From NCBI GenBank assembly GCA_963693365.1, contig CAVNZM010000002.1:2062259-2126258 (forward strand): a stretch of 64,000 nucleotides of DNA. Reading direction: 5' to 3'. This document shows, piece by piece, positions 3,190 to 63,637 of the stretch (positions within the stretch are counted from its first letter, which is position 1; every line of letters starts with the position of its first letter). The stretch is from Amoebidium appalachense. Its lineage: Eukaryota > Protista > Ichthyosporea. The notes beneath the pieces were generated by a model that saw nothing but the letters and a program-made list of their open reading frames with translations, had not been told where the DNA came from and ran no database searches. The position numbers were made by a program, and so were the translations under genes.

Positions 3190-3723
3190 TGTTAGGTAGA
3201 TTTGTGTTACTTAATACGTGTTCATTGGACGGTAACACACTTAGGCTACACTTAGAATAGCATGTGTGTTTAGACTTCATTAATTTACTTTAGTTTTCAT
3301 GTGTTGCCGGGCTTTAACCAATCATCAAGGTTAAGTGTGATATGTCTGAGTCTTTGCAGTATGTCATAGGTTAGAACTTCCTTGATGATGACACAAGTTG
3401 ACCTTAACTAGTGTCTGTGTCCTATCGTGTGCGTCTCCGCGTACCGGATCTCTCTAAAAGCAATTGGTTCTTAGTGATTGGTTTCTATTAGAGATAGATC
3501 TGATTTCCGACTGGTCGGAAATCATGTATGGATTGGACTTAGAGGAATTTCAGGTATTTATTCGAAGATCAGAATAAATTCAGTTCAGTCGTGTCTAAAC
3601 ATTGATGTCTGTTGTGTACACTGCTCCGATCGTTCCGTGTTTTGTTGTTGTGTGTGTCTGTGGTGTTTTCACACTGCACCACTGTGTCTCTGCTTACCAA
3701 GCAAATACTTATACAATTTAACA
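3190..3723 (+). mobile_element. 5' LTR of Copia element A
   Basis: TGTTA...TAACA termini, followed directly by GGTTATGCAGCCC (copia-type half-tRNA-iMet PBS-like, cf. GGTTATGGGCCCA) and a gag ORF. Confidence 0.75.
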
Positions 3724-3785
3724 GGTTATGCAGCCCTTTTGCACGCTCCCTACACACATCTAGAACTAGCGCTCGTTTTTCAATC

Positions 3786-4619
3786 ATGGATCCAAACAAA
3801 ACTGGCGTAAACAAAATCACCATGTGGAAAGGTGAAGGGAAGACTGGTCCCGATAGCAAAACCACCTATTTTCAATGGGAAATCTTTTTTCTCGGCATGA
3901 TGACCGGCACTAAAGGTGTCCGACTCGTGGATGTTGTACTTGCTGACAACTACGTCCCCCCTACCACCGTCGCGGTTGACGGTGAACCCCCCTTCTATGG
4001 CTACGGCACTACCGCGGAACTCAAGGAGGCCCGCAATTGCCTCCTGCTCCATATGATACAGAACATCGACCCTTCCGTCCTCACCACCGTTGCCCAGTAC
4101 CGTATTGGCATGGACCCTGAACGGGCCATGTGGAAATTCCGTCAACACTATCTCCAAGGCAAACCCGATCAGATCCGCATCCTTCACCGTCAGTGGGATG
4201 CCTGTGCCCTTCAGCCCGGTGAATCATTCACCACCTACCTGAGCCGTCTGCAGACCATCGTGAACCAGCTCCAGTCTCTCCAAGATGAGTCCATTCACTT
4301 CACTCGTCTAGCTGAGAAGGTCTTCAATGAACTCACCACCAGAGACGACCTCACCCCTGAGTTCAACCGTCTTATCGAAGACTATCACTTCGGTGATAAG
4401 CTATTCCCCGACTTCGAGTCCCTCCACAACCACGTCAAGGGCATCGAGTTACGTCAAGACCTCAAGATGCAACTCCGGAGCAACCGTGCCCACCGTGCCT
4501 CCAAGTCCAGCATGGCATTAAATGCCAGTGCTCCCCCCCGTGATCTTCCTCGCCGTGACTTACGCAACCGACTTGACAGAGCAGTGACGGTCCGAGGGAT
4601 GGAGGGACGTATCTCATAG
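3786..4619 (+). pseudogene. gag: Truncated Copia gag (element A)
   Basis: MDPNKT...TYFQWE...AMWKFRQHY...LQPGESFTTYLSRLQTIVNQL is a UBN2/retrotransposon gag pattern, homologous to the opposite-strand gag. It breaks off near 4575 before the zinc knuckle. Confidence 0.8.
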
Positions 4620-6064
4620 TCAGTGATGAAGTACAGTCCATCTGTGCCTGTGAGGGAACACACGATGTTGCCACCACGAGTGTAGAGGTATGATGGGAAT
4701 GCATCCTCATCATCGAGGTGGGCAAGGAGACCCGACTTGGAGGCCATTGAGGGTGATATCAGGAAGGCTGGGGAGTCGGGTACATAGAGGGTGTTGAGGC
4801 TCAGTACTGATGTTACTCCGTTGTAGGTGACGGCCAGGTTGATGACACCACGGTGATGTGCAGTGACGATGCCGAGGCCGTGGACGTCAGTCGGGGGGCA
4901 TGGCTCAAGAGTAGAGAAGTACTCTTTTACTGGGCACACGTGGACGTTTGAAGCCGAGTCCCAGCAGGGGTCCATGGGTAGGGAGGCCGTGGTGGACACG
5001 AGGGCAAAATGCACCTCTTTTCCAGACTTGGTGTTGGCACGGTGACGACGGGCAATTGAGCAGCCAGGTTTGTCACACTGTGTGACATGATGGTCTTCGT
5101 GACAGTAGGCACAGTCGAGGGAGCCAGTGGTCTTGGCTCGGTGTGGCTGGGAATGACGGTTACCCCCTTTACGTGGGGGGTAGGGTGACCGGGAACGATA
5201 GCCGGGGGAACGGGACCGTGAGTAATCACGGTCAACTGAGGGGGATCGATCGGTGGGACGACCGCGGGGGTGACGGGAGACGGAGCTGTCACGTCGGGGG
5301 ATCCGGTGTCTGAGGTCGTCCTTGGTGAGTACACGGCTTTGCAGGGCACGTGCTGTTCGGACGGTGGAGGAGGACCCGGACCCAGAGTCGATGAGACCTT
5401 CACGGATCTCTGCAGCTCTGATGTCACTGATTAGACGGTTGTAGGTCTCGTAGTTAATGGTACGACGGAAGTAGTCGGCAATCATGGCCTGGATGTCGGT
5501 ACAAACTAACTTACGGTTCTTCTTGAGGTGGATGAAGAAGTTATCAACCATAGTCTTGTGAGGAATGGGCTCTTCGAGGATGTGCAGGGTAGTGCACAGA
5601 CGGCGTGCCATGGTGAGGTAGGCCGTGACGGTCTTGAAGTCTTTGAGTTCAAGCTCATGGTAGTCGAGGAGGATTTGACGAGCACGATCTTCACGTTCAG
5701 CCGCATAGGTCATACGGAGGTTGTGGAAAGCTTGGGCAGGTGACACATCATCGTGGATTTGACCAGAGTTATACAGCTCATCATTGGAGACGAGTTGAGT
5801 AAACATCTGTTCAAGGAGGTTGGAAGCCTCGGTGTAGGCCTCCTCAGTGTCGTAGCCGTGCCACTCATTCTCGTCGGAAGGGTCGACCCACTCGGGGGCC
5901 TTGATGACGGGCACTAACTTCAAGTTGGCCGCGGTGGTGGTACGTAGGTACCGGAAGATGACGGGTTCCCACTCATAATAGGTGAGACGTTTGCCGGACT
6001 TCTTGTCCGTGGTGTCATCCCCTTTCCAGGGGGTGAGGTTGAGATACGCAGGTTTCTCCGACAT
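4575..6064 (-). pseudogene. gag-pol: Copia gag-protease (element B), truncated before integrase
   Basis: Gag N-terminus, zinc knuckle CAYCHEDHHVTQC, aspartic protease WDSASNVHVC...LYVP...LIS...GLY. No integrase, RT or RNase H follows. The ORF reads through to 4454 on the antisense of element A. Confidence 0.88.
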
Positions 6065-6183
6065 GGTGATCAATCAGTCAGATGATGCGTGAGAGAGGAA
6101 TCAGATCGGTATTCAAATTTGAATATTTTTGATTGCAGCGAGAGTATGTGTTTGCGAGAGCGTGCGAAAATGGGCCTTTAACC

Positions 6184-9499: not shown

Positions 9500-10862
9500 A
9501 GGTACCTTAAATATTATTACAACTAAAACTTCTGTATTTGGCAGTTGAATGCCCCAGTTTTACTTACATTATACGGATCATGATTGTAAGATAACAGTGC
9601 TTCGGATTCTGTTTTGCACTCCTCCAGTAAATCTTTGTTTCCATTGGCTATCAAGGCAAACCTTATGATCCTTAACATAGACAAATGTGGTGTTCTTGTA
9701 CCTGATATAGCTAACAATTTACACACATTTACATTATCATCTAAACCTGTACCTATAGTTCCAGAATACAAATATCTTGGTGTTCCGGTTGATTCTGTTG
9801 GTGTTATGTTTCCCCATATGGTCGAAAAGAGGGTAGAGTTGGCTCGTAAGCGGTTAGCTTTCTTCTCGGCTAATATTTTTAAAGACACACCCCTCCATCC
9901 TTCTATTAGACTTACATTTATTCGCACTTTTGTCTTCCCGGCATGTGAATATGGTTTACCCCTTCTCGCCGCTTGGATCAAGAAAGAGAGAACTAGAGCG
10001 CTTAAACCCTTGGCAAATTTCCTTGAAGCAGAAGTTGCCTCCTTTCTATCTAACAACTGTTGTAAACCTGGGCCTGTAACGCTCTCGATATATGGTCTGG
10101 TCCCAATAGCTGCTAGAGTATCCTATCTCGCGCTGAAATTCAATAAGCACATAAGCCGCTTAAAGAAGTATTTGCCCTCCCACCCTCTCTTCTCTATCCG
10201 ACCTGTCCCCTCCTCACCTCTCCCCTCTTTCCTCCCCTCTCTCTCCCCTTCTCCCCTGGGCACAAATACAAATAAACCCCGCAATAGTGTGTGTGTGACT
10301 TTGGACTGCCACTTACTTATTAAACATGTACACAATCACAAGATAATCACGCAATATAACAAATGGAAAAAGATACCACACGACACTAGACCCGATGAAA
10401 GCATACACCTTGAAAAACTAAGCCTTATGTCTCGTTTTATATATACTGACCGCCTCAACCATATTGCCAAATATGGCACTCGCAAGTGTATAACACCTAA
10501 ATACATATTACCTTCCTGTAGAACTGGTCTTTCTCTAGCTGATGGTATTATTGATCAATTACCACGCTTTTACTGTACACGTGCTATACAGTGGAGATCT
10601 AATAAGTATAAGGTGGCATCATTTGCATGCCCAAACAACACACACACACACCAGTTTAACCGGTCATGTATCGCCAAATGTAGTTTGATAGACCACATAA
10701 TACCGCAACACACACACGTCACATTCACAACAGACACCCAGAAAGATAGCCTACCTGTAAATTACAACATCCTTGATTTTATACTAAACACGCGTAACTA
10801 CGACCTGTTTATTAGATGTATTGATTGGCTTGAGAAACACATCACTACAAAATTATAGCGCA

Positions 10863-12439: not shown

Positions 12440-12747
12440 TCTCCCCTACACCCCCCTTTGAGCCCCTCTTTGCCTTCCCCTCCCCACACCCGTCACCCCC
12501 TCCCCCACCACAAGAGCTACAATCCGCCGTGCTCACCCTACTCGACGATGATGAGGGTATGGCCTCAAGCACAGGCAGCACGGACACGGAAAAGGACGTC
12601 ACCCCATTGCACCCACACCCCCTCATCCCCGACCACCCCATCAAGCTCCAGGCACCCCCTGCCCCCAAGGCCAAAAAAACGACCAGAAAGACCACCAACA
12701 CCCGCAGGCCAAGAAGGGTGCCCGAGGAGAAAGTGTCAACCGACTAG
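12440..12747 (+). pseudogene. 3' fragment of an island gene (Pro/Lys/Arg-rich)
   Basis: Coding-like frame ending 21 nt before the integrase ATG; the 5' end runs into the repeat array. Confidence 0.35.
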
Positions 12748-12768
12748 TAGCGAGCGCAGGAAACCACC

Positions 12769-14088
12769 ATGGTGGCCAGAGACAAGGGCATTGAGCAGGT
12801 GATTGAGGAGACCTACGCCACCTTCAAGCTCCCCCCCACCGTGCAGGCACTGTGGCGGCGTGCAAAAGCAAAAGACAAGAGGGTAGGGCAACCGGCCGTG
12901 CGTGCCTACCTGTCCAGAAGAAACACCGGGCAGCAGGAATCCCTCAAGGAGGTGCTCGCCCCCCATCGTATCGAGAGGAAGGACTACCTCCCCACCACAG
13001 CACGGCCGAACAGCGTGGCGGCGGATCTGTTTTTCATGACACGTTACTCAAAGGCAAACAGGGGGTACAAGGGGGGATTGAGCATGATTGACATGAACAC
13101 GAGGCAGGCAACGGTCGTGCCCATAAAGACAAAGAGCTCAGGGAGCGGGAAGAACGAGCACCTCACCATCAGCAACGGGCCGGAGATGCAGAGGGCTGTG
13201 CACAAAGCCTTAAAGACCATCAGGGAGATGAAGGACGAAAGCAACAAAGGGGAGGAAAACCTACAACCTACAGAGGTCAAGCAGATCTTTACGGACAAGG
13301 GCACGGAGTTCCTCAGCAATACAATGAAAAAGTACTACGATCAACACGACATCACCATCCTTCCTCAAAAGCCAGGCCGAAAACCACGCAACGTGGCCAT
13401 GGTAGAACGGTTCCATCGCACCCTAAAGCAAGGATTGAGCAAGTACATGGAGGCCAACGACACGGGCAAGTGGACGGGGGAGGGGTTGGAAAACGTGTTG
13501 GAGGATTACAACGACACGTACCATGGTTCGATCGGTAGAGAGCCCAACAAGATGACCCAGAGGGCCGAACGGTGGAACAGCATCAACACGTGGCTGGAGA
13601 ACAGGAAGCAAAAAGGTAAGCTACGTGCCAAGATGGGGCACACGGAGGGCGAGCACGTGCGTGCACTCAAAAAGCCAAAGGGACCGTTTGAAAAGGAGGG
13701 AAGAAACTGGTCCAAGGACGTCTACACGCTCGCCTACAAGGATGCAAGTGGGTGGGCGCTACGCAACGCGGCTACAGGGGAGATGAGGAAACACACGCCA
13801 GGCCTACGCTACGCTTGGCCAGACACCATGCTAAAGAAGGTACCACCTACCAGCGTGTCTGTACCGCCCAGCAGCGGGATGCGTGCAGCTCGCAAGGAGA
13901 CAGCCAAGGAGAGGGCTCGCGAGGAGCTGGCGTTTGAAGGGCGCGAGCTGGTGCGCCAGAAGGGCACGCGTGCACAAGCCCAAAAGGAAAAGGAAAAACG
14001 AAAGGCACAGGAACTGAGAAAACTGGAGTTTGCCCACCAACAGGAGCAAACGGGTCTGCGTCGCAGTGAAAGGCGTGCACGCCGCTAG
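12769..14088 (+). CDS. Polinton/Maverick-type retroviral-like (rve, DDE) integrase, 439 aa
   Basis: ADLFFM...NRGYK...ID...PIKTK, TDKGTEF, VERFHRTLK, YNDTYHGSIG.EP, GEHVR...FEK..RNWS match the Polinton c-integrase pattern. DDE triad intact, intronless, ACCATGG start. Confidence 0.92.
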   Translation: MVARDKGIEQVIEETYATFKLPPTVQALWRRAKAKDKRVGQPAVRAYLSRRNTGQQESLKEVLAPHRIERKDYLPTTARPNSVAADLFFMTRYSKANRGYKGGLSMIDMNTRQATVVPIKTKSSGSGKNEHLTISNGPEMQRAVHKALKTIREMKDESNKGEENLQPTEVKQIFTDKGTEFLSNTMKKYYDQHDITILPQKPGRKPRNVAMVERFHRTLKQGLSKYMEANDTGKWTGEGLENVLEDYNDTYHGSIGREPNKMTQRAERWNSINTWLENRKQKGKLRAKMGHTEGEHVRALKKPKGPFEKEGRNWSKDVYTLAYKDASGWALRNAATGEMRKHTPGLRYAWPDTMLKKVPPTSVSVPPSSGMRAARKETAKERAREELAFEGRELVRQKGTRAQAQKEKEKRKAQELRKLEFAHQQEQTGLRRSERRARR

Positions 14089-14136
14089 GTGTGACCTGCC
14101 CATTCTGGAAAAACCATCCGTCTTGAAAAAAACAGA

Positions 14137-14241
14137 GACGCCCCACCAACCAGCCACCGCGAAAACTGGCCATTTTGGGATGATTGCGCAAACAGGGGAC
14201 GCCCCACCAACCAGCGACCGCCAAAACTAGCCCAATTTGGT
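14137..14241. repeat. Two direct repeats with a 61-bp period downstream of the integrase
   Basis: GACGCCCCACCAACCAGC.ACCG..AAAACT.GCC at ~14137 and ~14198. Confidence 0.75.
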
Positions 14242-14445
14242 CACCTTCCAAATCAGGCTAATCCTCCATGTGCGGACCCCAGGCCCAGGTCCGGATCAGG
14301 CCCGTGCGGGTCGGTTCGGGTCGGCCTGGTCAGATTTGGGTCGCGTCGACCCGTTAACGACCCGGCCCGACCCGACCCGGGCTAATCTGGACCGGCCCGT
14401 GGCCCGCGAAATTTTCACAGCACACAGGTGCGGGACTGTGTGATC

Positions 14446-14943
14446 ATGGGGCTGGGCAGCTGCTGCGGGGTGTACAAGGTCACACAGGACAAGAGGAAGG
14501 CCGGACTGGACACTGACAAGGTGCAGACACCAGCATGGGTGCTGGATGCACTCGAAAAGGAGTTTGGCGCACTCAATGACCCCTGCCCCATCACCTGGCG
14601 GGAGGGGGAGGACCCTTGCGCACTCACAGACGACGACGTGTGGTCCACCGAGAAAATAAACTATGTCAACCCTCCCTTCTCTGAGATTCCCCCATTTTTA
14701 CGCATGGCCATACGGATGTACATATCCAAGGGTAGAAAGAGCGTGCTGCTCGTGCCTGCACGCACGGAGGCACGCTGGTTCCATGACCTGGCCTTCAGGT
14801 ACGCCGCAGAGATACGCATCCTGAGGGGTAGGATCAAGTTTGAGGGGTTCAAGAGGCCATCGCCAGAGGGCGTGTGCCTGCTAAAGTTTGTTCACAGAGC
14901 CTCAGCCTGTCGGTGGCCCGCGTGTAGTGTCGTGGATGCCTGA
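14446..14943 (+). CDS. Phage-type DNA N6-adenine methyltransferase (PF05869-like), 165 aa
   Basis: QTPAWVLDALEKEFG..DPC, W...YVNPPFS, LLVPARTEARWF, EIRILRGRIKF is the full motif series of the phage Dam-like family. Confidence 0.9.
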   Translation: MGLGSCCGVYKVTQDKRKAGLDTDKVQTPAWVLDALEKEFGALNDPCPITWREGEDPCALTDDDVWSTEKINYVNPPFSEIPPFLRMAIRMYISKGRKSVLLVPARTEARWFHDLAFRYAAEIRILRGRIKFEGFKRPSPEGVCLLKFVHRASACRWPACSVVDA

Positions 14944-15070
14944 GGCATACCCGCGCAGCTCAAAGGCAGGGGCCGTGTTGGGGCTGGATTTCTAGCTTAA
15001 TTACTAAGATCTACTAGTAGGGTCTAGATCATAAAAATGTGTGTTAGAGTGTATGTAGTGCGTGCACACC

Positions 15071-15330
15071 ATGGCCAACTTGGAATCGTGCTGAACGACC
15101 AGTTTCAGCCCCTCACTGCGCGTACGTCAAACGCCACGCACACAGACTTTAGCTACTATGGCCAGCAGGCGATGGCACAGGCTGTTGCGGACAAGATATG
15201 CCCGCACGGTACCCGCCACCCCTTCTTCCTCAAACCAAGCACCATGGCAGGGTCTGCAGCAGGCCGATTTGCTCGCCCCAGACCCACCTTTGCGGCACTC
15301 AGGCGTGCACATGGCAGGCCCATGCACTGA
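15071..15330 (+). pseudogene. Small island ORF, probably frameshifted
   Basis: ACCATGG at 15071 is out of frame by 1 nt with the downstream open frame (IVLNDQFQPL...). Confidence 0.3.
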
Positions 15331-15427
15331 CCGTTAGTGTACGTAGTAGGCCATGGCCAAGCGGGCAATTGGCAACCAAAAATAAAAATAATGTGCATGC
15401 ATAAGTAAACGTGCAAGTCACGTCACC

Positions 15428-16009
15428 ATGGGGGTGTCATCGCAAGGCAGGAGCGGCAACACGCGTGTCATCTACGTGCAGAACCGGCCAAACAAGGCCT
15501 CAGAGGTAGCCAAGTGGGTGGGGGCCCTGGCGGGCGGTGCTGCCTTGGGGGCAGGGGGGTACTATGCATGGAAGCACAAGGGGGACATTGCGAGGGGGGT
15601 GGGCAACTACATGTACAACAAGGCTGCGGATGCTGCCACCTACACTGCAGGGAAGGCGGGGGAGGCGGGGGGGACGGTTTTCAAGGGCCTCAAGGGGGTA
15701 GCGCGTGCCACAGGCGATGCTGCCATGCAGGGCACGCAGCGTGCAGGGCAGGGCGCGCAGAATGGTGCATTCAGTGCGTGGAAGACCCTGAGGAATGGCA
15801 CGAGGGATGCGGGCAACTACCTGCTGCACAACACCCAGGATGCGTTGGGATATGGTCCTTATAACTTGAATGCTGCAGGCACACGCACGGGAAACAGCTA
15901 CGAGTGGAGAGGGGGTGGAGGGGGCGGTGCGCAGGTGCTTGTCGGCGGTAAGCCCTACGTCTGGCCGCCAGCCAGGTCGCCAAACGTATCGGGACGCGGC
16001 ATCCTCTAA
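15428..16009 (+). CDS. Gly/Ala-rich hypothetical protein with an N-terminal hydrophobic segment, 193 aa
   Basis: ACCATGG start, island-like codon usage, hydrophobic WVGALAGGAALGAGGYYAW, AATAAA upstream. Confidence 0.65.
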   Translation: MGVSSQGRSGNTRVIYVQNRPNKASEVAKWVGALAGGAALGAGGYYAWKHKGDIARGVGNYMYNKAADAATYTAGKAGEAGGTVFKGLKGVARATGDAAMQGTQRAGQGAQNGAFSAWKTLRNGTRDAGNYLLHNTQDALGYGPYNLNAAGTRTGNSYEWRGGGGGGAQVLVGGKPYVWPPARSPNVSGRGIL

Positions 16010-16294
16010 TGGAACCTTCCGTTTATGGTAAGTGTGCAGGGAAAAACCGTTGGCGGGCGGTGCGAGCGGCCAATCAAATTTTGTAGAATTTGTTGACTTG
16101 CATTCCATTGGCGACTCCCCTGCGCTCCTATTGGACGCCTAGGGCAACAGGAGTCACCGAATTTTGGAGCACGGTAGCGTGTGTGCACCGGAGGGCACAA
16201 AAGCCACCTGCAAACGTTCCTTATTCAAACACTTTTTCTTATATTCTAAGCCACTCTAGCCTGGTCTTTTTGCAAGCAGCGAACTTTGGAAACC

Positions 16295-17395
16295 ATGGCA
16301 GACCTCTCCTTCCTGCCCCCTCTAGATCTAGACGATGCTGATGTTCTTGCTGCCGCCGCAGCAGCCATTTCTGTGCCAGCCCGCAGGCCTCCTCCTGGCC
16401 GCACCTTCTCCTGGCATCTCAAAGATTTGGATCTTGACACTGTTCTGCTTCAACCCTTCTACGCATCCTACCGCACGCTTGCTGAGGGGTATGCAGCACA
16501 GCCCAGTGTTTCCGCCAACGCAGCATCCTTCCTCCTCTCCGCCAAGAAAGGTGACTTCTTCGCTGGCTATGATGCAGGGGGCGAAGTCTACTTCCAAAAA
16601 CGCTTCACGGGTCTAGATGACTTTGATGGGGCATGGCTCCCTGAGATGCTGGTGCGTGGTACCATCTCTGAGCCTGCAGAACTGGCTGAACTGCACGGCA
16701 AGTCGCTTTTGGCAACACTCGCGTGCCGCAACGCCCTCATGCTCAAGGGGGTGGCTGCTGCTGTGGTAGACATCCTCCTACCGCAGTTCACAGAGCATGA
16801 GAGATCCACTAGGCACAAGGTAGAGACAGACCCTCAGTTGGTTGGCAACTACATGCAGAGGTACCTGGAGGAGATAGAGGCCAACTGGGAGCCCATCGTC
16901 GGGATGTGCAAGGCAGGACTCACTCCCCACAGGGAGAGAGAGGTGGCCCGCCACCTGGCTCGTGTTGTTGCTGGCTTCCTGCAGACCATGGTGGCCACTG
17001 CAAAGGCAGCCAAGTTGAAGTCCACGCCCCTCTTCAAAGGGGTCGCCATGGATGTCCTCCATGACATGCAGGCATTGCTGCGTGGGGTTGCGAATGAGCG
17101 TATGTATGGTGCAGGTGAGAAGATTGTGTTTGCAGGGCTGATCAAGAAAAACATCCACAAGGAGGCACCATCACGGCGCAAGTCCGGCACGTTCATCGAC
17201 ATTGCCCCCAAGGAGAAGGAAAACCTTGCCCCCCTCCGCAGCAGCAGCACCAACAGCAACACCCCCTACAACAACAACAACAACATCATGACGGTCGGTG
17301 CCCCCTACTTCTACGGTAGGACCCGGGTGCCTAACTTACTCCGTACCTCAGCGGCACCGCCCCTCAAGACTGTGAACCATGGCTACATGGGCTAG
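16295..17395 (+). CDS. Hypothetical island protein, 366 aa
   Basis: Long intronless non-repetitive ORF with ACCATGG start and GC3 bias; no family recognised. Confidence 0.75.
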   Translation: MADLSFLPPLDLDDADVLAAAAAAISVPARRPPPGRTFSWHLKDLDLDTVLLQPFYASYRTLAEGYAAQPSVSANAASFLLSAKKGDFFAGYDAGGEVYFQKRFTGLDDFDGAWLPEMLVRGTISEPAELAELHGKSLLATLACRNALMLKGVAAAVVDILLPQFTEHERSTRHKVETDPQLVGNYMQRYLEEIEANWEPIVGMCKAGLTPHREREVARHLARVVAGFLQTMVATAKAAKLKSTPLFKGVAMDVLHDMQALLRGVANERMYGAGEKIVFAGLIKKNIHKEAPSRRKSGTFIDIAPKEKENLAPLRSSSTNSNTPYNNNNNIMTVGAPYFYGRTRVPNLLRTSAAPPLKTVNHGYMG

Positions 17396-17498
17396 TGCAC
17401 AGGATAGGGGGCAGTGCCCTAAACTTTGCCATTTTTAATTTTTTTAGTAAAGTACCTTAAAGTTTGAGCATGCCATGGCCTCATTAACATAGACACCG

Positions 17499-17937
17499 TT
17501 GTGATTTGTGTATACATAGTGGGCAGTGCCCTTTATTTTCACGTTTTTTTTCTTCTTCTTCTATACAAAGAATTGAACCGACGGCAAAAATAAACTTTTG
17601 TTTTTTTACGAAAGTTCCAAGAAAAAGAACAGAGCACAAGCTGAAGACTACCATGGTGCATTGCACACGTGTGTCTGCACGTGTGCGTGTGTGTGTGTGC
17701 ATGTGTGTGCATGTGTGTGCTTGTGTGTGCCAAAACACTCTAACAAAAATCTATGAAGATTTTAACGATAAAAAATAAAAAAACTTTGTGATCTGTGGAT
17801 GCATTGGGCGGAGCCCTTTATTTTCACGTTTTTTTTTCCTAGAAAGAAAACCGACGGCAAAAAGATCCAAGGAAAAAAAACAGAGCACAAGTTGAAGACT
17901 ACTATGGTGCATTGCACACGTGTGCCTGCACGTGTGC

Positions 17938-17940
<3 letters not shown>
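17499..17940. repeat. Imperfect duplication between convergent island genes
   Basis: GCCCTTTATTTTCACGTTTT...AACCGACGGCAAAA...ACAGAGCACAAG.TGAAGACTA.ATGGTGCATTGCACACGTG occurs at ~17528-17690 and ~17813-17938; each copy has a minus-strand AATAAA. Confidence 0.8.
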
Positions 17941-17994
<54 letters not shown>

Positions 17995-17995
<1 letters not shown>

Positions 17996-18969
17996 TAAAC
18001 GTTGCTGTTTGGCCCGTGGGGTGGCTCTGCCACAACCACTTGGTAGACCTTCACGGTCTCTGATGTTTCTGGCCTCATCCGTTTGTTGTCACGTTCCGTG
18101 ACAACGAGGCTGAACAGTTTGGACTTGATGCCCTCGTTAAGGGCCGTCAGAATGTCCCGTGCCGTTTCCTCCACCCACAGGCGATCCATCACCTCGAACA
18201 GGAAGTTGTGCACAAGTCGTTGCAGGTTATCCCGCAGCCCTCGTTCCTTGTGCATTATGCGGGGGTGGCAGTTTGGGGGTGAGACCATCCAATCGACCGT
18301 GATAAACTCGACGTACTTCTTCGACTCCGACCACGTCGTGTCGACAAACGTGATGAATCGCCTAACGTCGTTAATGTTATCGTCGTCGAAAACTCTCGGG
18401 GACACCGAGTCCAGGAAACCACCCACACGGCCTTCGTACACGTACAACCCCCATGCATCCCCCTCGGCCCACTTCTCTAGTTCCCCCAAGTCTCTCTTGA
18501 ACCGTGTCTCGTGCCCATCCTCGTAGTTGGGTGCGGTGATAGTGAACGTCCATTCCCCCTGCTCGTTGATTTCCCCCTTAAAAATGTCCGTGCCTAACAC
18601 TTGGTTGAGACGTCCTGGTAGGGCCTTCTTTTCCTCCATCGACCACGTGCCTGTGTGTGTGTTCACCTTGGTAATTGCACGTTCCCGCTCCATCACTTCG
18701 TCCTCGAAAAACTGCCATACTTCCACCCTCTCCATGCTCGTCTTGGCCCAGTCGGCAATCATCTCCCTATAGGTGGGTGAAACGGGGCGTGTGACCCACT
18801 CTTTAGTACGGTGATTGTAGTACCTGTAGGTACCGTTGAAAATGTGCAGGTGGGGTTGGGCTGCCACGTCGAGATAGTGGCCAAACATGTGTTGGTTGGT
18901 TGCTTTTCTTATGAAGGGGGGACCAAGTTCGAGGTCGTCCTCTGAGGAATCAATACGATGAGAAGACAT
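17995..18969 (-). CDS. Hypothetical island protein, 324 aa
   Basis: Intronless complex ORF with AACATG start; no family recognised. Confidence 0.75.
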
Positions 18970-19308
18970 GTTGTTGTGTGGTGATTGATTGTTCTAAGTC
19001 TCACTGAGTAAAAGGATGGTGTGGTGTCTTTTAAAAGTCTTTATTCTGTGCGAAAAGAGATGATTGTGAAAATGTTTAAGAGTTTTTTCTAAGTTTTTTC
19101 TTCACAAAAAAACGAACGAAAACGAGACGAGACTGAGAGAATACGTAATATTACGTAACATTCAATTTCGCTTGATTTCATTGGCTCATAAGTTACGCAA
19201 AGTTCAAGTTGGCGCAATCATTTACTCTCTCACTCATGTACGTACTAAGTCAACTCAGTCGCGGCGGCACACAGTGTTTTTTTTTGGGAAGAAGTTTATT
19301 TCGTGGCA

Positions 19309-20274
19309 TCACCCGGAGGTAAAGAGATTCTGAATAAACAGACATGTGCCTATTACATCCTGACGCATTTTCGCCTTGTCCTCCCCAGGCATGGGCGTGC
19401 CAGCACGCTTAGCCTGCCCCATGTCTACATCACCCCCCTCCCCCTCACTACCCGCACCACCACTGACCAACTCCATCAGACCATCTAACTCAAACACCTG
19501 AACCTTGCGGGCAACGAGCTTGGTGCGCACAGTGTTGTTTTTCTTGTTGTAGATGACGCTGGTGGCGGCAGCAGACACCCATGCAGTAACCTCACGGCAC
19601 TTGGCACGCTGGGAGTTCATAAACTCCACAAACTCATCCACAGAGGCCGCGTTGTTGCCCAGCTTGAAGAGGCAGGCGTTGCGGCCATGGGGGTTGGGCA
19701 ATTCCAACGTCACGTTGAAGTAGGTGTCGCCCAGTGCCCCCTCCATGTCCTCCTTGCCGACGGGGTCGGCACCCAGCACCTCGTACAGGTTGGGGGTGTG
19801 CTTGCTCCAGAGGTTGCTGCTGGTCTTGACGGGCACACCATCCAGGTCGACACCCTTGAGCATCTCGTGGTCCTTGTGCATCCACAGCACGTCCTTGGCC
19901 ATGCTGCACACGTAGGGCCACAGGTCTGTGGCGTAGGCCACCTCAAAGGGCTCGGGGCGGCGTTGGGACTTGATCTTAATGGTGGGTTTGGTGTCCCAGG
20001 CAGCCGTGCTGGGAACCAGCTCGATGAGCATTTGCCCGTTGATGTTGATGTTGGGCAGGTTGTACAGCTGCACCACCAGCACGTCGTTCATGACCCAGGG
20101 TGCACCCATGGTGGCCTTGCCCACACCGTTGAGGAACACCTCCTTGTACAGCACCATCTTGGACCCCTCAACGCTGCTGTTGATGTTTTCTTTGCCACTG
20201 CTTGCCGCGACGATGCTGGTCCTTTTGACGGTGGACAGACCAGTCATTTGACGCAGCAGGGTTGGCTTGACCAT
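19309..20274 (-). CDS. Hypothetical island protein, 321 aa (possibly OB-fold ssDNA-binding)
   Basis: Strong GC3 bias, AAAATGG start, AATAAA downstream on the minus strand. The function guess is weak. Confidence 0.78.
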   Translation of the reverse strand: MVKPTLLRQMTGLSTVKRTSIVAASSGKENINSSVEGSKMVLYKEVFLNGVGKATMGAPWVMNDVLVVQLYNLPNININGQMLIELVPSTAAWDTKPTIKIKSQRRPEPFEVAYATDLWPYVCSMAKDVLWMHKDHEMLKGVDLDGVPVKTSSNLWSKHTPNLYEVLGADPVGKEDMEGALGDTYFNVTLELPNPHGRNACLFKLGNNAASVDEFVEFMNSQRAKCREVTAWVSAAATSVIYNKKNNTVRTKLVARKVQVFELDGLMELVSGGAGSEGEGGDVDMGQAKRAGTPMPGEDKAKMRQDVIGTCLFIQNLFTSG

Positions 20275-20453
20275 TTTGCTGTTGCTTGGGGGGTGTGGTG
20301 AACGTTACTGTGGTGTGCACCTCGACTGTGACTGTCTGGCTCATGTTTGGTTGGTGAGAGGTTGCCTGTGTGCGGCTGTTTATGTACACGGCGGTAGGAT
20401 GCAGGGTGCGTTTCTGGCCAATGAGGACCGTAATCCCTGTTCCCTGTGCCCTC

Positions 20454-22283: not shown

Positions 22284-23071
22284 TAGTGCCTACAACCTAC
22301 TGAGGCGGTGTCTCCTTTCTTTTTTTTTTTTTTTGCCGCCTGAGTAGATGTTAAACGTCGCACGTGCGGCAACACGTCAGTACGTGTTAGCCTTAGTGCC
22401 CTTAGTCACAACTATCAGACTATAGTTACGTGTCCTCCACTTCTTTGTTCTTGACCATTTTTTCGGCATGAAAGGGTTTCTGTTACTTCTTGCTGTCCTT
22501 CTTAGCGTGCTTGCTTGTCTTTTTTTCAACATGGGTGTCACTGGCGCTTTCGACTTCTTTGAAATCACACGTGTACGTGGACACAAGCACGAATGCACAC
22601 ACCCACACCCACACTCTCACTCACACCCACAGCTCATGCTCACACTCAAACAGCACACACACACACACACACACAGACACACACACACACACACACACCA
22701 TACACGTACAGACATTTTAAACATGGACATCGGCACCGTGAACCCCCCCCCCCCCCTCTCGATCTTGGTTGGGTCTTTGGTATGTATGTATTTACCCCTC
22801 ATCCCACCTCCCTTCCTTATCTTCCTGTCCAGTGCACACACCACTCCTTTTTTAGTTTAGGCAATTTATAGTGTCGTGTAGCACATACAACCCCCCCCCC
22901 CCCCACCCCCCCCCCCCCAACAAACGCAGTACAGTACACACCCCCGCCCTCCCCCCCCCCCCAACAAACGCAGTACAGTACACACCCCCGCCCTGCGCCC
23001 CCCCCCCCCCCCCCCCCCCCCTTCCTCTCTTCCCACCTCCCGAGTCCTTATCAATGTTCCCACCTCCCCAG

Positions 23072-23230
<159 letters not shown>

Positions 23231-23397
23231 ATACACATACAGACATTCACAAACACGGACTTTTGGATTTTGTCCTGGTGCAGAGACTAGCGATCTTGCT
23301 AGCCTTGAGATCACAACCTAACCACTGCCGATGGTTGTGATGACGCCAGTAAAGGCGTGCTGGCTTTTACCCCAGCGAGAAGAGGATGAGAAAAAGA

Positions 23398-23470
23398 TGA
23401 TCCCGACGGGATTTGAACCCGCGACCCCTCTATCTCCGGTCGAGTGCTCTACCAACTGAGCTACGAGATC
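23398..23470 (-). tRNA. tRNA-like gene in the 3' LTR (GGA at anticodon position, C33, short variable arm)
   Basis: 73-nt cloverleaf: acceptor GATCTCG/CGGGATC, D stem GCTC/GAGC, A box TAGCTCAGTTGG, B box GGTTCAAATCC, T5 terminator 2 nt downstream. Confidence 0.8.
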
Positions 23471-23767
23471 GGTTAAGATCTCGCAGGCCACCAGCCGATC
23501 ATGATCTGATTCATGCGATCGGACTGGATAACGATACCATCTTCCAACATCCCCACTCAGGACGAATCGCAGAATCAGGTTAGGGTGGACTGCCCCCTCA
23601 GTCCCCACTGAACCTCTGTTCATGCTACCATTTTGGATTTTGTCCTGGTGCAGAGACTAGCGATCTTGCTAGCCTTGAGATCACAACCTAACCACTGCCG
23701 ATGGTTGTGATGACGCCAGTAAAGGCGTGCTGGCTTTTACCCCAGCGAGAAGAGGATGAGAAAAAGA

Positions 23768-23840
23768 TGATCCCGACGGGATTTGAACCCGCGACCCCTC
23801 TATCTCCGGTCGAGTGCTCTACCAACTGAGCTACGAGATC
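23768..23840 (-). tRNA. tRNA-like gene in the 5' LTR (identical copy)
   Basis: Same sequence as 23398-23470, offset by 370 bp. Confidence 0.8.
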
Positions 23841-25376
23841 GGTTAAGATCTCGCAGGCCACCAGCCGATCATGATCTGATTCATGCGATCGGACTGGATA
23901 ACGATACCATCTTCCAACACGGACATCGGCACCGTGAACCACTCCCCCCCCCCCCCCCCCCCAAACCCCCCCCCCCCCCGGCCCCCCCCCCCTTCTCCAT
24001 TTCTTGTATGTATTTGAACTGGGCAGGCTGCACCAGGTGTGTGAGCCATGGCCTGTGAGCCACGCCAACTGGTCCGGGTGAGCCAGCTGGCCCGGAACTT
24101 CCGGACTGACAGGTGTATTTCCGGCCCGGGGGCCACACGTGCTCGACTGCAGCATGGCCGCGGGCATAGACAGAACACACGTGTCCCATGCATTGCCGCA
24201 CACTTCTAGCCTCGTAGTTTTTGCCAGGTGGTTAATCTTGCTTTTTTATTCGTATCACACACACATTATAGTACATTCAAACTCAAAACCCAAACTTTAA
24301 ACCCCTTAGGGGCATGCGTCATATAAAGCTCTAGTACGTATACATATGTGGGACTGAATAAAGTGACTTTTCAGGCTGTTGCATAATGCTGTGTGAAGAG
24401 ATACCGAGTTCCCCAAGGCGCAGGAGGCATAACGTGTCATTACATGCGTGACATATCCCTCATCGGGGGTTGTCATAACCTCCCAGGGGATTATCGGGAT
24501 ATATTTGGATAGTCAATGGATATTTTCGATTGCAATTTGACCCTCCTGGGGGGTTCTAAATGTGTCAGCCATTTGCGAACCGAACTTTCAAAAATTTTAA
24601 ATTCTGAAAAAAGTTTCAAGGATAAAATCGATAGCGCTGAGCACGTATAAGGAAGTTCAAATAAATAGTTTTTACGATAGGGAGCCCCTACGTAGAACAT
24701 CTTATTTTCTTTCTAGCACCCCTCCTTCATTGTTTTCTGGAAAACCGCCAATTTGGGGTCAATTAGTGAAAATTTAAATTTTCAAACGAAAATTTCAAAA
24801 GGTTCCCGCGGTGGCGCTGGGCAAGTGTCCGGGTGCATTTGAAGTAGACATCAAGACGGACATTTTGACGTGTCTATTTCCTTTTTATCTCAATTCTATG
24901 GGGAGCGACATGCTCTCAGATCGGGACGATTTTGGGGTCTGAAATTGGAGGGTTTTAGACTTGAGGCACGCACCTTAGTCCAAAAAGTGCGATCGATGAT
25001 CGATCCCCGGCCAACTTGCTAGAAAGCTGGCTCAGTCAGTATGTATGCATACGATCGTGGAGTTCGGACTCAGGCTGTTCCTTTTCCTGTTCCGGCTTGT
25101 TCAGGCTGTTCCTTTTCCTGTTCCTTTTCCTTTTCCTGTTCCGGCTATTAAGGCCGGCCTGGCCACGGTGCGCACGCCGTTTTACACCTGCTCCTCGGGA
25201 GGCGTGAGCCTGAAGTAGCTACAAGCTGCATAGCGCTACAGGTCATGACCTTGCAAAATTGGTCGGTACTTTCGAGATCGAATTCGAACGTACTGAACAA
25301 TTCCGGGATCGAGAGGACTACATGCTAAGGGATCCTTCCCCTGTCCCCGGGGCCCTTGCCCAGAGAGTAGCCGCGC

Positions 25377-59484: not shown

Positions 59485-60200
59485 AAGAGAGTTGGCGGAA
59501 ATGGCGTCGGGAAAAGGGAATGAGCAGGTGTGTATGTGTGCATGAGCCAGTCGGGGCAGGGGGGGAAGGGCGTTTGGGGGGGGGGGGGGGGGGGGGGGGG
59601 TTTTGAATGCGTCAAAAAGTACGAAGTACACAAGAACAAACGGATAACACGATGCAGAATGCAAGCCATACATAAAGAGTATGCATAATAAGCAGAGCCC
59701 ATGGGGGGGGGGGGGGGGGGGGTTGGGGGGGGGGGGGTTGCACAAAACGATGCGAAACATGGAAGCAAAGGAATCTAACAACCACAGACAACAAAACAAA
59801 CGTACCCAAACAAATATGCTCCGTAGGAAATACGGAACAGAGGCCATCACCAGGGCATGCGGTGGGGGGAGCGGGGTTAGAATGAGTTACAAAGTAACGT
59901 GGGGGAAGGGGGTGGGGGGAGAGGGGTCAGAGTGAGTTAGAAAGTACGGTGGGGGATTAGGGGGGGGGGGGGGGGGGGGGGGGGTTAGAATGTGTTACAG
60001 AGTACAGGTTCATAACGAACAACACAGTGCTAGTATTGCAATGCACACAAAAAGAGGCAGATTTTGGGGGGGGGGGGGGGGAGGGGGGAGGATGTTGAGG
60101 GCTTGGGGGCTAACGCCCGGGGGAGAGGGGGGGGAAGGGGGAGGGGGAGGATGAAGAGGGGAGAAGGGGGGAACGGAGGACGGGGGCAAACGTTGCATAC

Positions 60201-61873
60201 CGACTCCACATCCAGCTGGGGGCAATCCAAAAGTGGGTCTTTGGGGCAATGTGGCATACCGATCGTAACAGAGCGCAGGGATGGGTGGCCCCTAAGGGCC
60301 TCCAAATCACGAACCGCATCAAGGGAAAATAGTCGCAGGGCGGTTAAACGTGTGCACGACCCCAAAAACGACACGTCGGAAATATGCGGTAGGTGGTGTA
60401 AAAAAATGGTCCTGACGTTTGTTGCGTGTCGAAGAACGGATATGTCTCTCAAAATCAGGTTGTATGCGAGGTCTACTTCACGAAGATGTGGAAACGATCC
60501 GTTTGTTGCCGGGCCCAAGGATTCGAGATCTCCACAGTGACGAAGACTGAGCGCAACCAAGTGCTTGAAATTAGCGATCGGTAGGATGGGGGGTAGTACC
60601 ATGTGCGAAATTTCAATGTCGGTTAGGGTCGTGAGGGTGGCAATCACTGAGGCGTCGAGGGTGTTAACTGACAACAGTAACAGGGTTTTTAACTCGGTGC
60701 ATGCCCCTAAGAAAGAAAGGGTTCTCAGTAGAACATCGCGATCTTCCGGGGTTTCGTCCCTAATGATGCGAAACTCGAGCAGTTTTGCTGGCGCCGAGTC
60801 AGGAACTGGGATCTCGTCAGCGGCATGTACACATACACTCTTCAGAGAGGGGCTACCGGCAATAAACGACAAATTGTTGACAAATATGCCCTGCCCGCAC
60901 TTGAAGTGCACAAGGTGGGGGAGGGGCGGAATGTCGACGATGGTCGGGATATCTAAGTCATCGAATTCTTCCATGTACACACTGATGATGTTGACGTGTG
61001 TGAGCCGCTGGCAGTATGCCAAAGGAGCCGCGCTTAGGTTTCCATTTAGCGCGTTGCCGTGTTCCCTCGAGGGTAATTTAACATCCAACCGAGCCAGACT
61101 GGGGCAATTCTCAAGGAATGTAAAACTTGGATCCTCTCCGTCGTCCTGAAACACGGACTCGTTCCCAATTTCAAGGCATTGTAAGTGTGTCAAGCGAATA
61201 CACGCCTGAGTAAGTTGGTCACTGTTGGGCCACACATCCAGGTGTAATCTCGTTATGTTTTCACATGTTCGATCCGGGAATGTGTCCGCCAAAGGCAAGT
61301 CGTATCCGGTTAGTTCCAAACCGGTTACGTGCCCACCACCCACCAGAACCGCCTCCACGATTCGACCTGACACGACGTCTGTGGGGTTGAAGATATAGTT
61401 GCTCCCAATCTCATGTTCCAGCACTATATTTTGCGCCGTATTTCCTGCCTGGCGAAGAACTGCCATGACCAATCTCTCCAGAAAGTGCTCATCAGGATGG
61501 TGGCCATACGACCAAAATCTTACTGTGTGGACGTGGGGGAGGAAACTAAGAACGAGGGCTAGTAAAGCCAGCTGAAAAGGATTTGCCGTGTCGTTTCCCC
61601 TCGGAAGAAGTGCGTTCAGATTGAATCTTACAGTTTGGATTGCACCCGCCCATGTTCTGAGCACACCGTAACGATCGGACACTTGCTCAACGAGAGGAGA
61701 ACAAACTCCGTCTTCGAATTCGTGGTCTATTGGGTAGGGAAGAGTCACGCAAACGCCTCCACAGGCCAAATCACGTGCAATGTTGGCCAAACGTTTGCAT
61801 ACGAGTGTGATGTTGAGACGGCTTTTGTGGTCCAAACGCCGGATGATGGGTATGAGTATCTCAGGTGGAAGTG
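60201..61873 (-). CDS. F-box plus leucine-rich-repeat protein, large internal exon
   Basis: LPPEILIPIIRRLDHKSRLNITLVCKRL (F-box) follows a TTTCAG acceptor; many LRRs (LREVDLAYN, ISDVSFLGSCTRLTAL); GTATGC donor at ~60200. Flanking exons unresolved. Confidence 0.85.
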
Positions 61874-63091
61874 CTGAAATGGAGAGCCCTGAGAGAGAGG
61901 GAGCAAGTTGGTTGTATAAGGAGAATGGTAGTGGTGTGTGTGTTTGTTAGAAAAAAAGTAGAAGTAAGGAACACTGGGTGGAGGAGGGAGAGGAGGGTAG
62001 AAGGTGGGAAAAAACAGGTAGGAGGGAGGTGGATAGAACAGGGTACAAAGCGAAGAACCACAGATACCAGCACACGGATTTTCGGTTGCCAAACATTCTG
62101 CCTTTTACGAAGTTCGAAAGGAACATGCCTGGCGTGCAACAAATTGCTCTAAACCGAAGCAATAGACCACACAAAAGCAGAACGAAAGGTTCTGTGATAC
62201 AGATATGGTACGCCCATGTACAAGGCACAGTCAAGAAGGTTCCTGGCGCTATACCAGCACCTGCACACATCATAAACTTTGTCACTTTACTGCAACAATT
62301 AATCGTGCTAAGGATTGTGTTTACCTTCCCCAGCCACAGGCGACTGCATGGTGCCAGCCATACGTGTTCCGCATGTGTTTTACGTGAGTTAGGTGGTGCT
62401 TGTCTGGTTCGCTCACACGGAGAATACTGTGAACGTTACCATCAGCAGATCTAAATGTCTTGTCCAATAAACATTCAAAAAAACCCACACGGCATAGCTA
62501 AACGAAGCACGGAAGAATTTAATTCACTAGTATTGGCCAAGGAATGGTGTTCCACAGAAATGGTGTTCCATATCACGTCAACATGCCTTTCAACTTTTTC
62601 AGATAGAGAGCCTCTGAGAGTGAGAGAGAGCCTGTGTGAGAGAGAGAGCGAGAGAGAGACCGTCAAAGCATCAACAGAATGCTTTCATATGATTGGGTAG
62701 ATTGGCTCAATCACAGGCAAATACTCAAATCTAATTGGGTTACTTTGAAACAATCCTGAACGATTTGCTTATGATCACGCATAGTAACCTTCGGGTCTTG
62801 GATAGATCTGTCCTTGAGGCTTCAACCAAAACCGTTTTCAAGTTGTCTTGCTTTGGTGTTGGCAGCGTTTTCGTTTCTTTCAATGGATCCGGAAGGGTTG
62901 TGTGCGGACTAAGCTCGTTAGGAAGTTGTATTGACCAACGTGCTTGATAGTGGTCGACATTTATCATCGGTTGATGCGGAACCTACCATATGTTCATTCA
63001 CCTCATATCATTTCTTCTGAGCGCACAAAAACTGTACAGGTTTGGTAACGCTTCTCTGTAGATACCGTTTTTTTTAGTGAGAACAAACAAG

Positions 63092-63637
63092 ATGGGGGCA
63101 TATTTCTCGTCTCTTTTCTCTCGTCTGTTTGGCGAGAAGGAAGTGCGTGTTCTTATTCTCGGCTTGGACGGTGCCGGCAAAACCACAATCCTCTATCGTT
63201 TGCAAGTGGGCGAGGTTGTGACCACGATCCCTACCATTGGGTTTAATGTCGAGACAGTTACCTACAAGAATCTCAAGTTCCAGGTGTGGGATTTGGGCGG
63301 ACAGACAAGCATCCGACCTTACTGGCGCTGTTACTACGCAAACACAGACGCTATCATTTACGTTGTGGACTCTGCAGACAGAGAGAGAATGTCCATTTCC
63401 AAGCAAGAGCTAGTTGCGATGCTTGAGGAGGAAGAGCTGAAGGATTCAGTTCTTCTTGTATTTGCAAACAAGCAAGACATGGAGGGCGCCATGACACCGT
63501 CAGAGGTTAGCAACGCGCTTGGCCTGTCAGTGCTGAAAAACAGAACGTGGTCCATCTTCAAGACCTCAGCCAAGAAGGGTACAGGCATGGACGAGGCCAT
63601 GGATTGGTTGGTCAACACACTGCAGTCAAGATCGTGA
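63092..63637 (+). CDS. ARL1: ADP-ribosylation factor-like GTPase 1, 181 aa, intronless CDS
   Basis: MG myristoylation start, [51 protein letters not shown]. Confidence 0.97.

Follow-up and report, generated by a model that had tools for sequence, protein, structure and literature searches.

A non-coding LTR element and its surroundings

The window analysed is a 64,000-nucleotide stretch of DNA from the ichthyosporean Amoebidium appalachense (contig CAVNZM010000002.1, positions 2,062,259 to 2,126,258); its minus strand carries a complete 659-bp LTR element which, on its sequence features, is almost certainly a Helenus-type TRIM. The parts of the element and of its insertion site, all read from the sequence, are the following:

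23261..23919, minus strand: complete non-coding LTR element, 659 bp (TRIM, almost certainly of Helenus type)
23631..23919, minus strand: 5' LTR, 289 bp, first bases TG, last bases AA (not CA)
23261..23549, minus strand: 3' LTR, 289 bp, 100% identical to the 5' LTR
23550..23630, minus strand: internal region, 81 bp, without coding capacity
23623..23630, minus strand: PBS-like site with a TGG start, directly behind the 5' LTR
23550..23558, minus strand: polypurine tract (PPT) adjoining the 3' LTR, 9 nt, 8 of them purines
23920..23924, no strand: 5-bp target-site duplication (TSD), 5' side
23256..23260, no strand: 5-bp TSD, 3' side

The assignment to Helenus (TRIMp3) draws on the two LTRs, the short length and the lack of coding capacity; on a tRNA-like sequence with an A box and a B box in each LTR; on the PPT before the 3' LTR and a TSD whose 5 bp fall within the criterion range of 4-6 bp; and on the dispersed, multi-copy family seen in contigs from public runs. 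The PBS-like site at 23623-23630 is presumably that of initiator tRNA-Met, and its TGG start is also present in some fungal Helenus. A 9-bp reading of the TSD was rejected: the first four LTR bases recur behind the PPT, and are therefore part of the LTR and not of the TSD. For the LTR end AA (23261-23264 and 23631-23634), no listed variant with the usual CA was found in the four public runs that cover 23631-23634. The insertion target is a short repeated sequence (flanks 23225-23260 and 23920-23945), and an uninterrupted look-alike of the site lies 500 bp off, at 22694-22744, matching at 82% over 57 nt.

Contigs from runs X2, X15 and X16 run out of the element into differing flanks at, or within a few bases of, 23631 and 23919; differing flanks at the same boundaries point to a dispersed, young family, and across eight public runs the family is nearly uniform. 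The loose ends at 23919 (X2) and 23631 (X15) have one shared other 5-mer beside the LTR, which, going by these contigs, is perhaps a second TSD. Sequencing depth in X15 is 4540 for the LTR and 2128 for the interior, a ratio of about 2.1 between contig depths that are not copy numbers, and hints that most copies are complete. Matches in runs X1, X17 and X20 do not show transcription. Joints in the contigs that go back by 370 nt do not prove tandem arrays, as the same joints are expected of a two-LTR element in an assembly graph. Two sets of apparent relatives were likewise set aside: a metagenome scan for the LTR start plus A box gave 14 loci, all 14 of which matched by chance and bore no similarity to the element in BLAST, and a viral scan for the acceptor-stem pattern gave 88 loci, none similar outside the tRNA part, which served as a control. 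In two viral contigs the sequence that fits the acceptor-stem pattern is 65 nt long and unlike a normal tRNA, the usual D and T loops being absent.

Elsewhere in the window two converging Copia-like ORFs, at 3606-4619 (plus strand) and 4454-6073 (minus strand), have a weak gag match (PF14223) and a protease-region match (PF22936); they are possible relics of helper-type elements, and the start of the element's PBS was not found near these two ORFs. A Helenus element would need an autonomous Copia or Gypsy partner in order to move. The ORF at 9523-10858 has no Pfam match and is presumably, by motif, the C-terminal part of a non-LTR reverse transcriptase. A compact intron-free gene block at about 12700-20300 contains an integrase-like ORF at 12751-14088 (by motif reading, with no Pfam match), a Dam-type adenine methylase at 14386-14943 (PF05869) and three ORFs without a Pfam match; the block looks like an integrated virus or a Polinton-like element. 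An intron-free ARL1 gene (63092-63637) and an intron-free F-box/LRR ORF (60030-61946) stand in surroundings rich in introns and microsatellites. The ARL1 protein has 88% identity to one with a CFRG gene id, the prefix of the ichthyosporean Creolimax, ahead of every named animal or fungal match; in a tree of 29 rows, picked from 120 listed matches, the two group together with 96/75 support.

The tRNA-like sequence and its leader hairpin

Each LTR contains a tRNA-like sequence followed by a T5 run:

23768..23840, minus strand: tRNA-like gene in the 5' LTR, 73 nt (ARAGORN, Rfam RF00005)
23398..23470, minus strand: tRNA-like gene in the 3' LTR, identical, 73 nt (ARAGORN, Rfam RF00005)
23822-23833, minus strand: A box of the 5' LTR tRNA-like gene, read from the sequence
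23779-23789, minus strand: B box of the 5' LTR tRNA-like gene, read from the sequence
23761..23765, minus strand: T5 run in the 5' LTR, within a pyrimidine tract, candidate Pol III terminator
23391..23395, minus strand: T5 run in the 3' LTR, read from the sequence

The tRNA-like sequence scores 57.4 bits against Rfam RF00005 in both LTRs, and the Rfam search returned these two tRNA matches only, with no ribozyme or other RNA family. Its acceptor, D and T arms are intact; the anticodon stem has a G-A mismatch, position 33 is C and the variable loop is short, without a long variable arm, features which make the Ser-GGA label isotype-discordant. A functional tRNA-Ser gene was accordingly rejected (no long variable arm, no U33, an anticodon stem that is not intact); tRNA scans in such genomes will nonetheless count these LTRs as tRNA-Ser genes. 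Phage tRNAs that share the element's acceptor stem are Lys-TTT in 47 of 49 cases, with a best identity of 55/73, and this Lys-TTT excess is a weak hint at the origin of the tRNA-like sequence. Isotype-discordant tRNA parts are common to many Helenus families (PMC10886601).

The sequence just upstream of each tRNA-like gene is complementary to its 5' end:

23461..23486, minus strand: leader hairpin, 3' LTR copy, read from the sequence; contains the reported 23464-23483
23831..23856, minus strand: leader hairpin, 5' LTR copy, identical, read from the sequence

The initial annotation had described, on the minus strand at 23483-23464 and again at 23834-23853, an arm of 7 nt followed by a 6-nt loop and then by tRNA nt 1-7, and had ascribed the structure to a retroelement; the inverted repeat is present as described, and the retroelement has turned out to be the complete 659-bp TRIM with LTRs, PPT and 5-bp TSD. 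The hairpin has 10 contiguous pairs, one of them G-U, around its 6-nt loop; the 3' arm consists of tRNA nt 1-10, and the stem extends into the first A-box bases. Thirteen local helices of at least 6 pairs, some of them overlapping, are listed for the 370-nt unit, and none of the others is as long as the hairpin. Because the LTRs are 100% identical over 289 bp, the two copies are one observation and not independent ones.

When the 79 nt upstream were shuffled 5000 times with dinucleotides preserved, at least 7 Watson-Crick pairs arose in 118 shuffles; with G-U allowed, the same 5000 gave at least 10 pairs in 57 and at least 8 in 403, for p values of 0.01-0.02 in what is a post-hoc test. A second null, in which 30-nt windows of the element stood in as leaders (102 of 680), was discarded as invalid, since its windows overlap the tRNA. 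Phage tRNA genes with the same acceptor stem were used as a control (50 distinct leader-plus-match pairs, 49 after one was dropped as too short): none of the 49 has a 7-bp Watson-Crick leader complement, and 8 leader pairs with G-U occur in one. On these sequence comparisons the leader hairpin appears to exceed chance modestly.

Two variants of the stem were seen in the public runs. At 23851 a minor variant in run X16, with a depth of 86 out of 3602, replaces an A-U pair by G-U, by which the arm turns identical to the tRNA's own 3' acceptor strand, and has a stem of 10 pairs at -13.9 kcal/mol. The relative in run X20, a wetland metatranscriptome, is represented by one contig of depth 3 that departs from the window over 107 nt in 6 letters and by one gap (3 of the 6 differing letters and the gap are listed); it has a loop change, a G-U pair changed to A-U and a one-base arm loss that opens a bulge, leaving 9 pairs at -10.1 kcal/mol. 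The predicted local stem of the window copy is -14.8 kcal/mol; both variants weaken the stem and both keep one, and in all three forms the acceptor stem is predicted to be lost from a 14-nt leader on. The two pair-keeping single changes in the family are not significant, and no two-sided compensatory change was seen in the stem across eight public runs, so that the covariation across copies to which the initial annotation had looked did not appear.

Folding was modelled as equilibrium secondary structure, which includes no tertiary contacts, modification or La protein. For RNA ending in the T run, the acceptor-stem probability is predicted to be 0.82-0.97 with leaders of 0-9 nt, 0.40-0.47 with leaders of 10-11 nt, and at most 0.03 from a 12-nt leader on. 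Forced-fold energies for hairpin versus acceptor stem are -28.3 versus -26.2 kcal/mol with a 12-nt leader and -42.4 versus -33.1 kcal/mol with a 30-nt leader, and with leaders of at least 12 nt the hairpin is predicted to be better than the acceptor stem by 2-9 kcal/mol. The two structures are predicted to be mutually exclusive; in models with and without the leader, the arm competes with the acceptor stem as had been proposed, and the folds flip with leader length. A true on/off folding switch would need, besides such exclusive folds, both of them populated in real transcripts and covariation. In the full upstream context of the window element the hairpin has a predicted probability of 1.00, and in RNA starting at -12 it is predicted at both copies.

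The further proposal, that the leader is what saves long transcripts from folding as tRNA, did not hold up in the models. Without a leader the acceptor probability is predicted to be 0.06 in RNA running from the tRNA to the LTR end and 0.00 in genome-length RNA, a loss due to pairing between the 3' half of the tRNA and the pyrimidine tract that follows it; in the whole LTR with the arm shuffled 100 times, the mean acceptor probability is still 0.00. For the 3' LTR copy ending at the T run, the native acceptor probability is predicted to be 0.00 and rises above 0.5 in 19 of 100 arm shuffles, which argues that the arm is not the sole competitor. In the models the pyrimidine tract with its T5 run (23746-23767 and 23376-23397) forms pairs with the variable loop and the purine-rich anticodon 3' arm, and it would act as a second competitor of the cloverleaf.

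Where transcription begins would determine how much of the arm an RNA contains. Pol III initiation prefers pyrimidine-purine steps, and such steps in the 5' LTR give three putative starts:

23844, minus strand: candidate Pol III start at -4
23852, minus strand: candidate Pol III start at -12
23854, minus strand: candidate Pol III start at -14

The A box is reported to lie 12-20 nt downstream of the Pol III start (bioRxiv 2020.04.17.046805), a range from which a leader of 5-13 nt is expected in the element; human tRNA starts cluster near -5, and plant starts lie at -2 to -10 (bioRxiv 696559). The start range straddles the point at which the predicted fold switches, so that a tRNA fold of short transcripts is possible and not given: the earlier claim that short Pol III transcripts fold as tRNA is not supported as it stands, since it would need a start at about -9 or closer (a cloverleaf is predicted for leaders of up to 9 nt) and the published range allows 5-13 nt, -12 included.

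Hairpins in published families and explanations of the leader hairpin

The published consensus LTRs of PMC10886601 (6 of the 9 parts of Data S1) were scored by eye for an inverted repeat that has roughly 8 pairs at the least, counting G-U and tolerating one mismatch or bulge, and that includes at least 4 of tRNA nt 1-7; LTRs cut before the tRNA start by a file-part boundary were left out of the tally. By this count 51 of 97 animal Helenus LTRs have the hairpin, 15 are partial or borderline and 31 have none, numbers which are not a count of events because the families are related. Among 59 fungal Helenus LTRs a single one has it (Helenus-1_AmAr), which does not exceed chance; the one LTR from Selaginella is without it, and both of the 2 Ajax have it. 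Hairpin-positive animal families include those of coelacanth, sturgeon, paddlefish, carp-related fish and a nemertean, and many from bivalves. In these stems about 10 nt upstream pair with the tRNA 5' strand and the A-box start; in the families counted, some 18-22 nt separate the base of the hairpin from the A box, whose first bases, TAGC, are typically paired with a GCTA at the beginning of the arm. Inner pairs differ among the fish families yet stay paired, with G-U, A-U, G-C and C-G seen at one position.

The 7 bivalve families whose tRNAs are drawn as intact (Fig. S1 of the same source) all lack the hairpin as scored by eye, one being borderline, so that hairpin and cloverleaf look like alternatives in animals. 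Many Helenus families combine an intact acceptor stem with no leader hairpin in the by-eye tally; since many successful families are of this kind, the hairpin is not required, and chance stays a strong rival for the window element. By eye, many fish, bivalve and nemertean Helenus LTRs also have a second short inverted repeat just upstream, which shares the GCTAG arm with the A-box hairpin; because the arm is shared, the two stems would exclude each other, and the second would be formable only in RNA that has the upstream LTR part, that is, at the 3' copy. To judge from these sequences, the shared-arm pair may be a better candidate for a true switch than the hairpin of the window.

The reading preferred here, with a probability of about 0.42, is that the leader hairpin is a functional, constitutive stem-loop at the 5' end, or R region, of the predicted Pol III RNA and not a length switch; on this reading the hairpin probably keeps the tRNA-like sequence from folding as a tRNA. 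The tRNA part would serve as a DNA promoter through its A and B boxes; Pol III would start inside the 5' arm at -12 or -14, pass the first T5 at some rate and stop at the second, and both RNA ends would carry a tRNA-like R region, as in the account given for Cassandra (PMC10886601). The hairpin would fold before the tRNA 3' half is made, with the result that RNase P and RNase Z would meet no cloverleaf at either copy; their cleavage would take away one of the R copies on which strand transfer relies. Dependence on the hairpin would be greatest at the 3' copy, where nothing downstream competes; at the 5' copy the pyrimidine tract that follows is predicted to disrupt the fold as well.

A constitutive structure is favoured over a switch by the animal families, whose stems persist through pair-keeping changes and which, in the few checked, have little of the acceptor stem left. 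Several points count against it: no two-sided change was seen in the family; 31 of 97 animal and 58 of 59 fungal LTRs are without a clear hairpin by eye; and the fungal Helenus without it share the 5-bp TSD and often keep the full acceptor stem. Starts near -5, as in human, or at -2 to -10, as in plants, would leave the arm out of the RNA.

It is possible, if on the doubtful side, that the hairpin is a neutral by-product, whether a chance match, a one-off inverted duplication or a remnant of the tRNA 3' strand, which is now slowly decaying. The LTR contains 8 GATC palindromes against 0.8 expected, LTR and element fold strongly overall relative to shuffles (z of -4.3 and -5.3), and 13 helices of at least 6 pairs are listed in 370 nt; in an element so rich in GATC and so highly folded one more stem is cheap, which counts against a functional constitutive stem. 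A by-product would also be in keeping with a post-hoc p of only 0.01-0.02, with the weakening of the stem in both the X16 and X20 variants, in one of which the arm is identical to the tRNA's own 3' acceptor strand, with the predicted loss of the acceptor stem in long RNA even without the hairpin, and with the lack of a hairpin in most fungal Helenus. It is less easily reconciled with the hairpin being the longest helix in the unit, with its retention in the diverged X20 relative, and with its having the same register as the covarying hairpin seen by eye in many animal Helenus and in Ajax. If the hairpin is chance, the remaining find is an ordinary new family of a known type.

A length switch, in which a Pol III start near -4 would yield a short tRNA-like RNA and leader-bearing RNA (the 3' copy, or Pol II read-in) would escape RNase P and Z, is clearly unlikely. 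The predicted flip between 9 and 12 nt of leader is sharp, a start at -4 would fall on a pyrimidine-purine step and close to the -5 around which human starts group, T5 stands directly behind the tRNA, and the acceptor stem of the window element still has all 7 pairs, in contrast to the few families checked among the animal ones with a hairpin. The 5' copy in genome-length RNA would, however, then be without the hairpin and is predicted to be unfolded by downstream sequence instead; the anticodon arm is degenerate, so that the short form has no evident use, and no compensatory change was seen. It is very improbable that the inverted repeat serves some other role, whether it signals packaging or strand transfer by the helper element from within the R region, influences how Pol III terminates at the first T5, or acts as a palindrome in the DNA where transcription starts: several animal families do keep a near-loopless stem with the acceptor stem largely gone (by eye, few checked), so that no cloverleaf is left to hide, and Ajax, with its 5S-derived part, has the hairpin too, but G-U pairs are common in those stems and fit RNA better than DNA.

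Comparison with known systems

Helenus (TRIMp3) elements are TRIMs with a tRNA-like sequence in the LTR that is thought to act as a Pol III promoter (Kojima 2024, PMC10886601). They are, like the window element, short non-coding LTR elements with a PPT and a tRNA-like sequence with A and B boxes in each LTR; where they have a PBS, the window element has its PBS-like site, and a T run behind the tRNA is common to both; their length range of 311-1263 bp includes that of the window element, and the tRNA is isotype-discordant in both (PMC10886601). Some fungal Helenus have a 5-bp TSD and a PBS start like those of the window element. The window element differs in its ichthyosporean host, in its LTR ends AA, and in having a full acceptor stem and a leader hairpin together. 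It extends Helenus-type TRIMs to a unicellular relative of animals, a lineage absent from the list of PMC10886601 as available; six name stems, ichthyosporean and holozoan, are all absent from the available supplement of that paper.

The cutting by RNase P or Z, or the stop at a terminator, that an LTR element with a tRNA at both ends might meet is not addressed in the available text of PMC10886601, in which hairpin, palindrome, inverted, acceptor, RNase P and processing are not mentioned. The available portions of PMC11481361, PMC13570524, PMC6934838, PMC7215508 and PMC10275265 contain no such hairpin and no ichthyosporean Helenus, and neither was described in the literature searched, which did not extend to subscription papers and Repbase entries. 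By sequence, a similar hairpin appears to recur in many animal Helenus-type elements and is apparently undescribed; a recurring, covarying hairpin at the start site would be a concrete and cheaply testable answer to the cutting and termination problem.

The animal Helenus families that have the hairpin, and Ajax, are likened to the window element by the position and pairing of that hairpin: where Pol III is expected to start, an arm from upstream is paired with the 5' strand of the tRNA and the beginning of the A box. These animal Helenus differ from the window element in their often smaller loops and, in the few checked, in having lost most of the acceptor stem; animal Helenus have 4-bp TSDs and are linked to Gypsy helpers (PMC10886601). 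It is conceivable, though unlikely, that TRIMs of separate origin (animal Helenus, Ajax and the ichthyosporean element) have converged on a start-site hairpin that captures the tRNA 5' strand; the window element would then be an intermediate with both folds, in which the choice between starts at -4 and -12 settles whether a tRNA-like by-product or a protected template for transposition is made.

Cassandra resembles the window element in its Pol III promoter within the LTRs and its strongly folded RNA (PMC10886601, PMC7215508); its transcript begins and ends within the small-RNA part (PMC10886601), and read-through of its LTRs has been reported (PMC7215508). It differs from the window element in containing 5S rRNA instead of a tRNA, in being found in plants only, and in facing no RNase P or Z problem. 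The tRNA-derived SINEs such as BC1 refold their tRNA head, and the RNA of the promoter region is no longer a cloverleaf; unlike the window element, they move by a non-LTR mechanism and have no PBS or PPT, and their refolding is internal and not brought about by an upstream arm.
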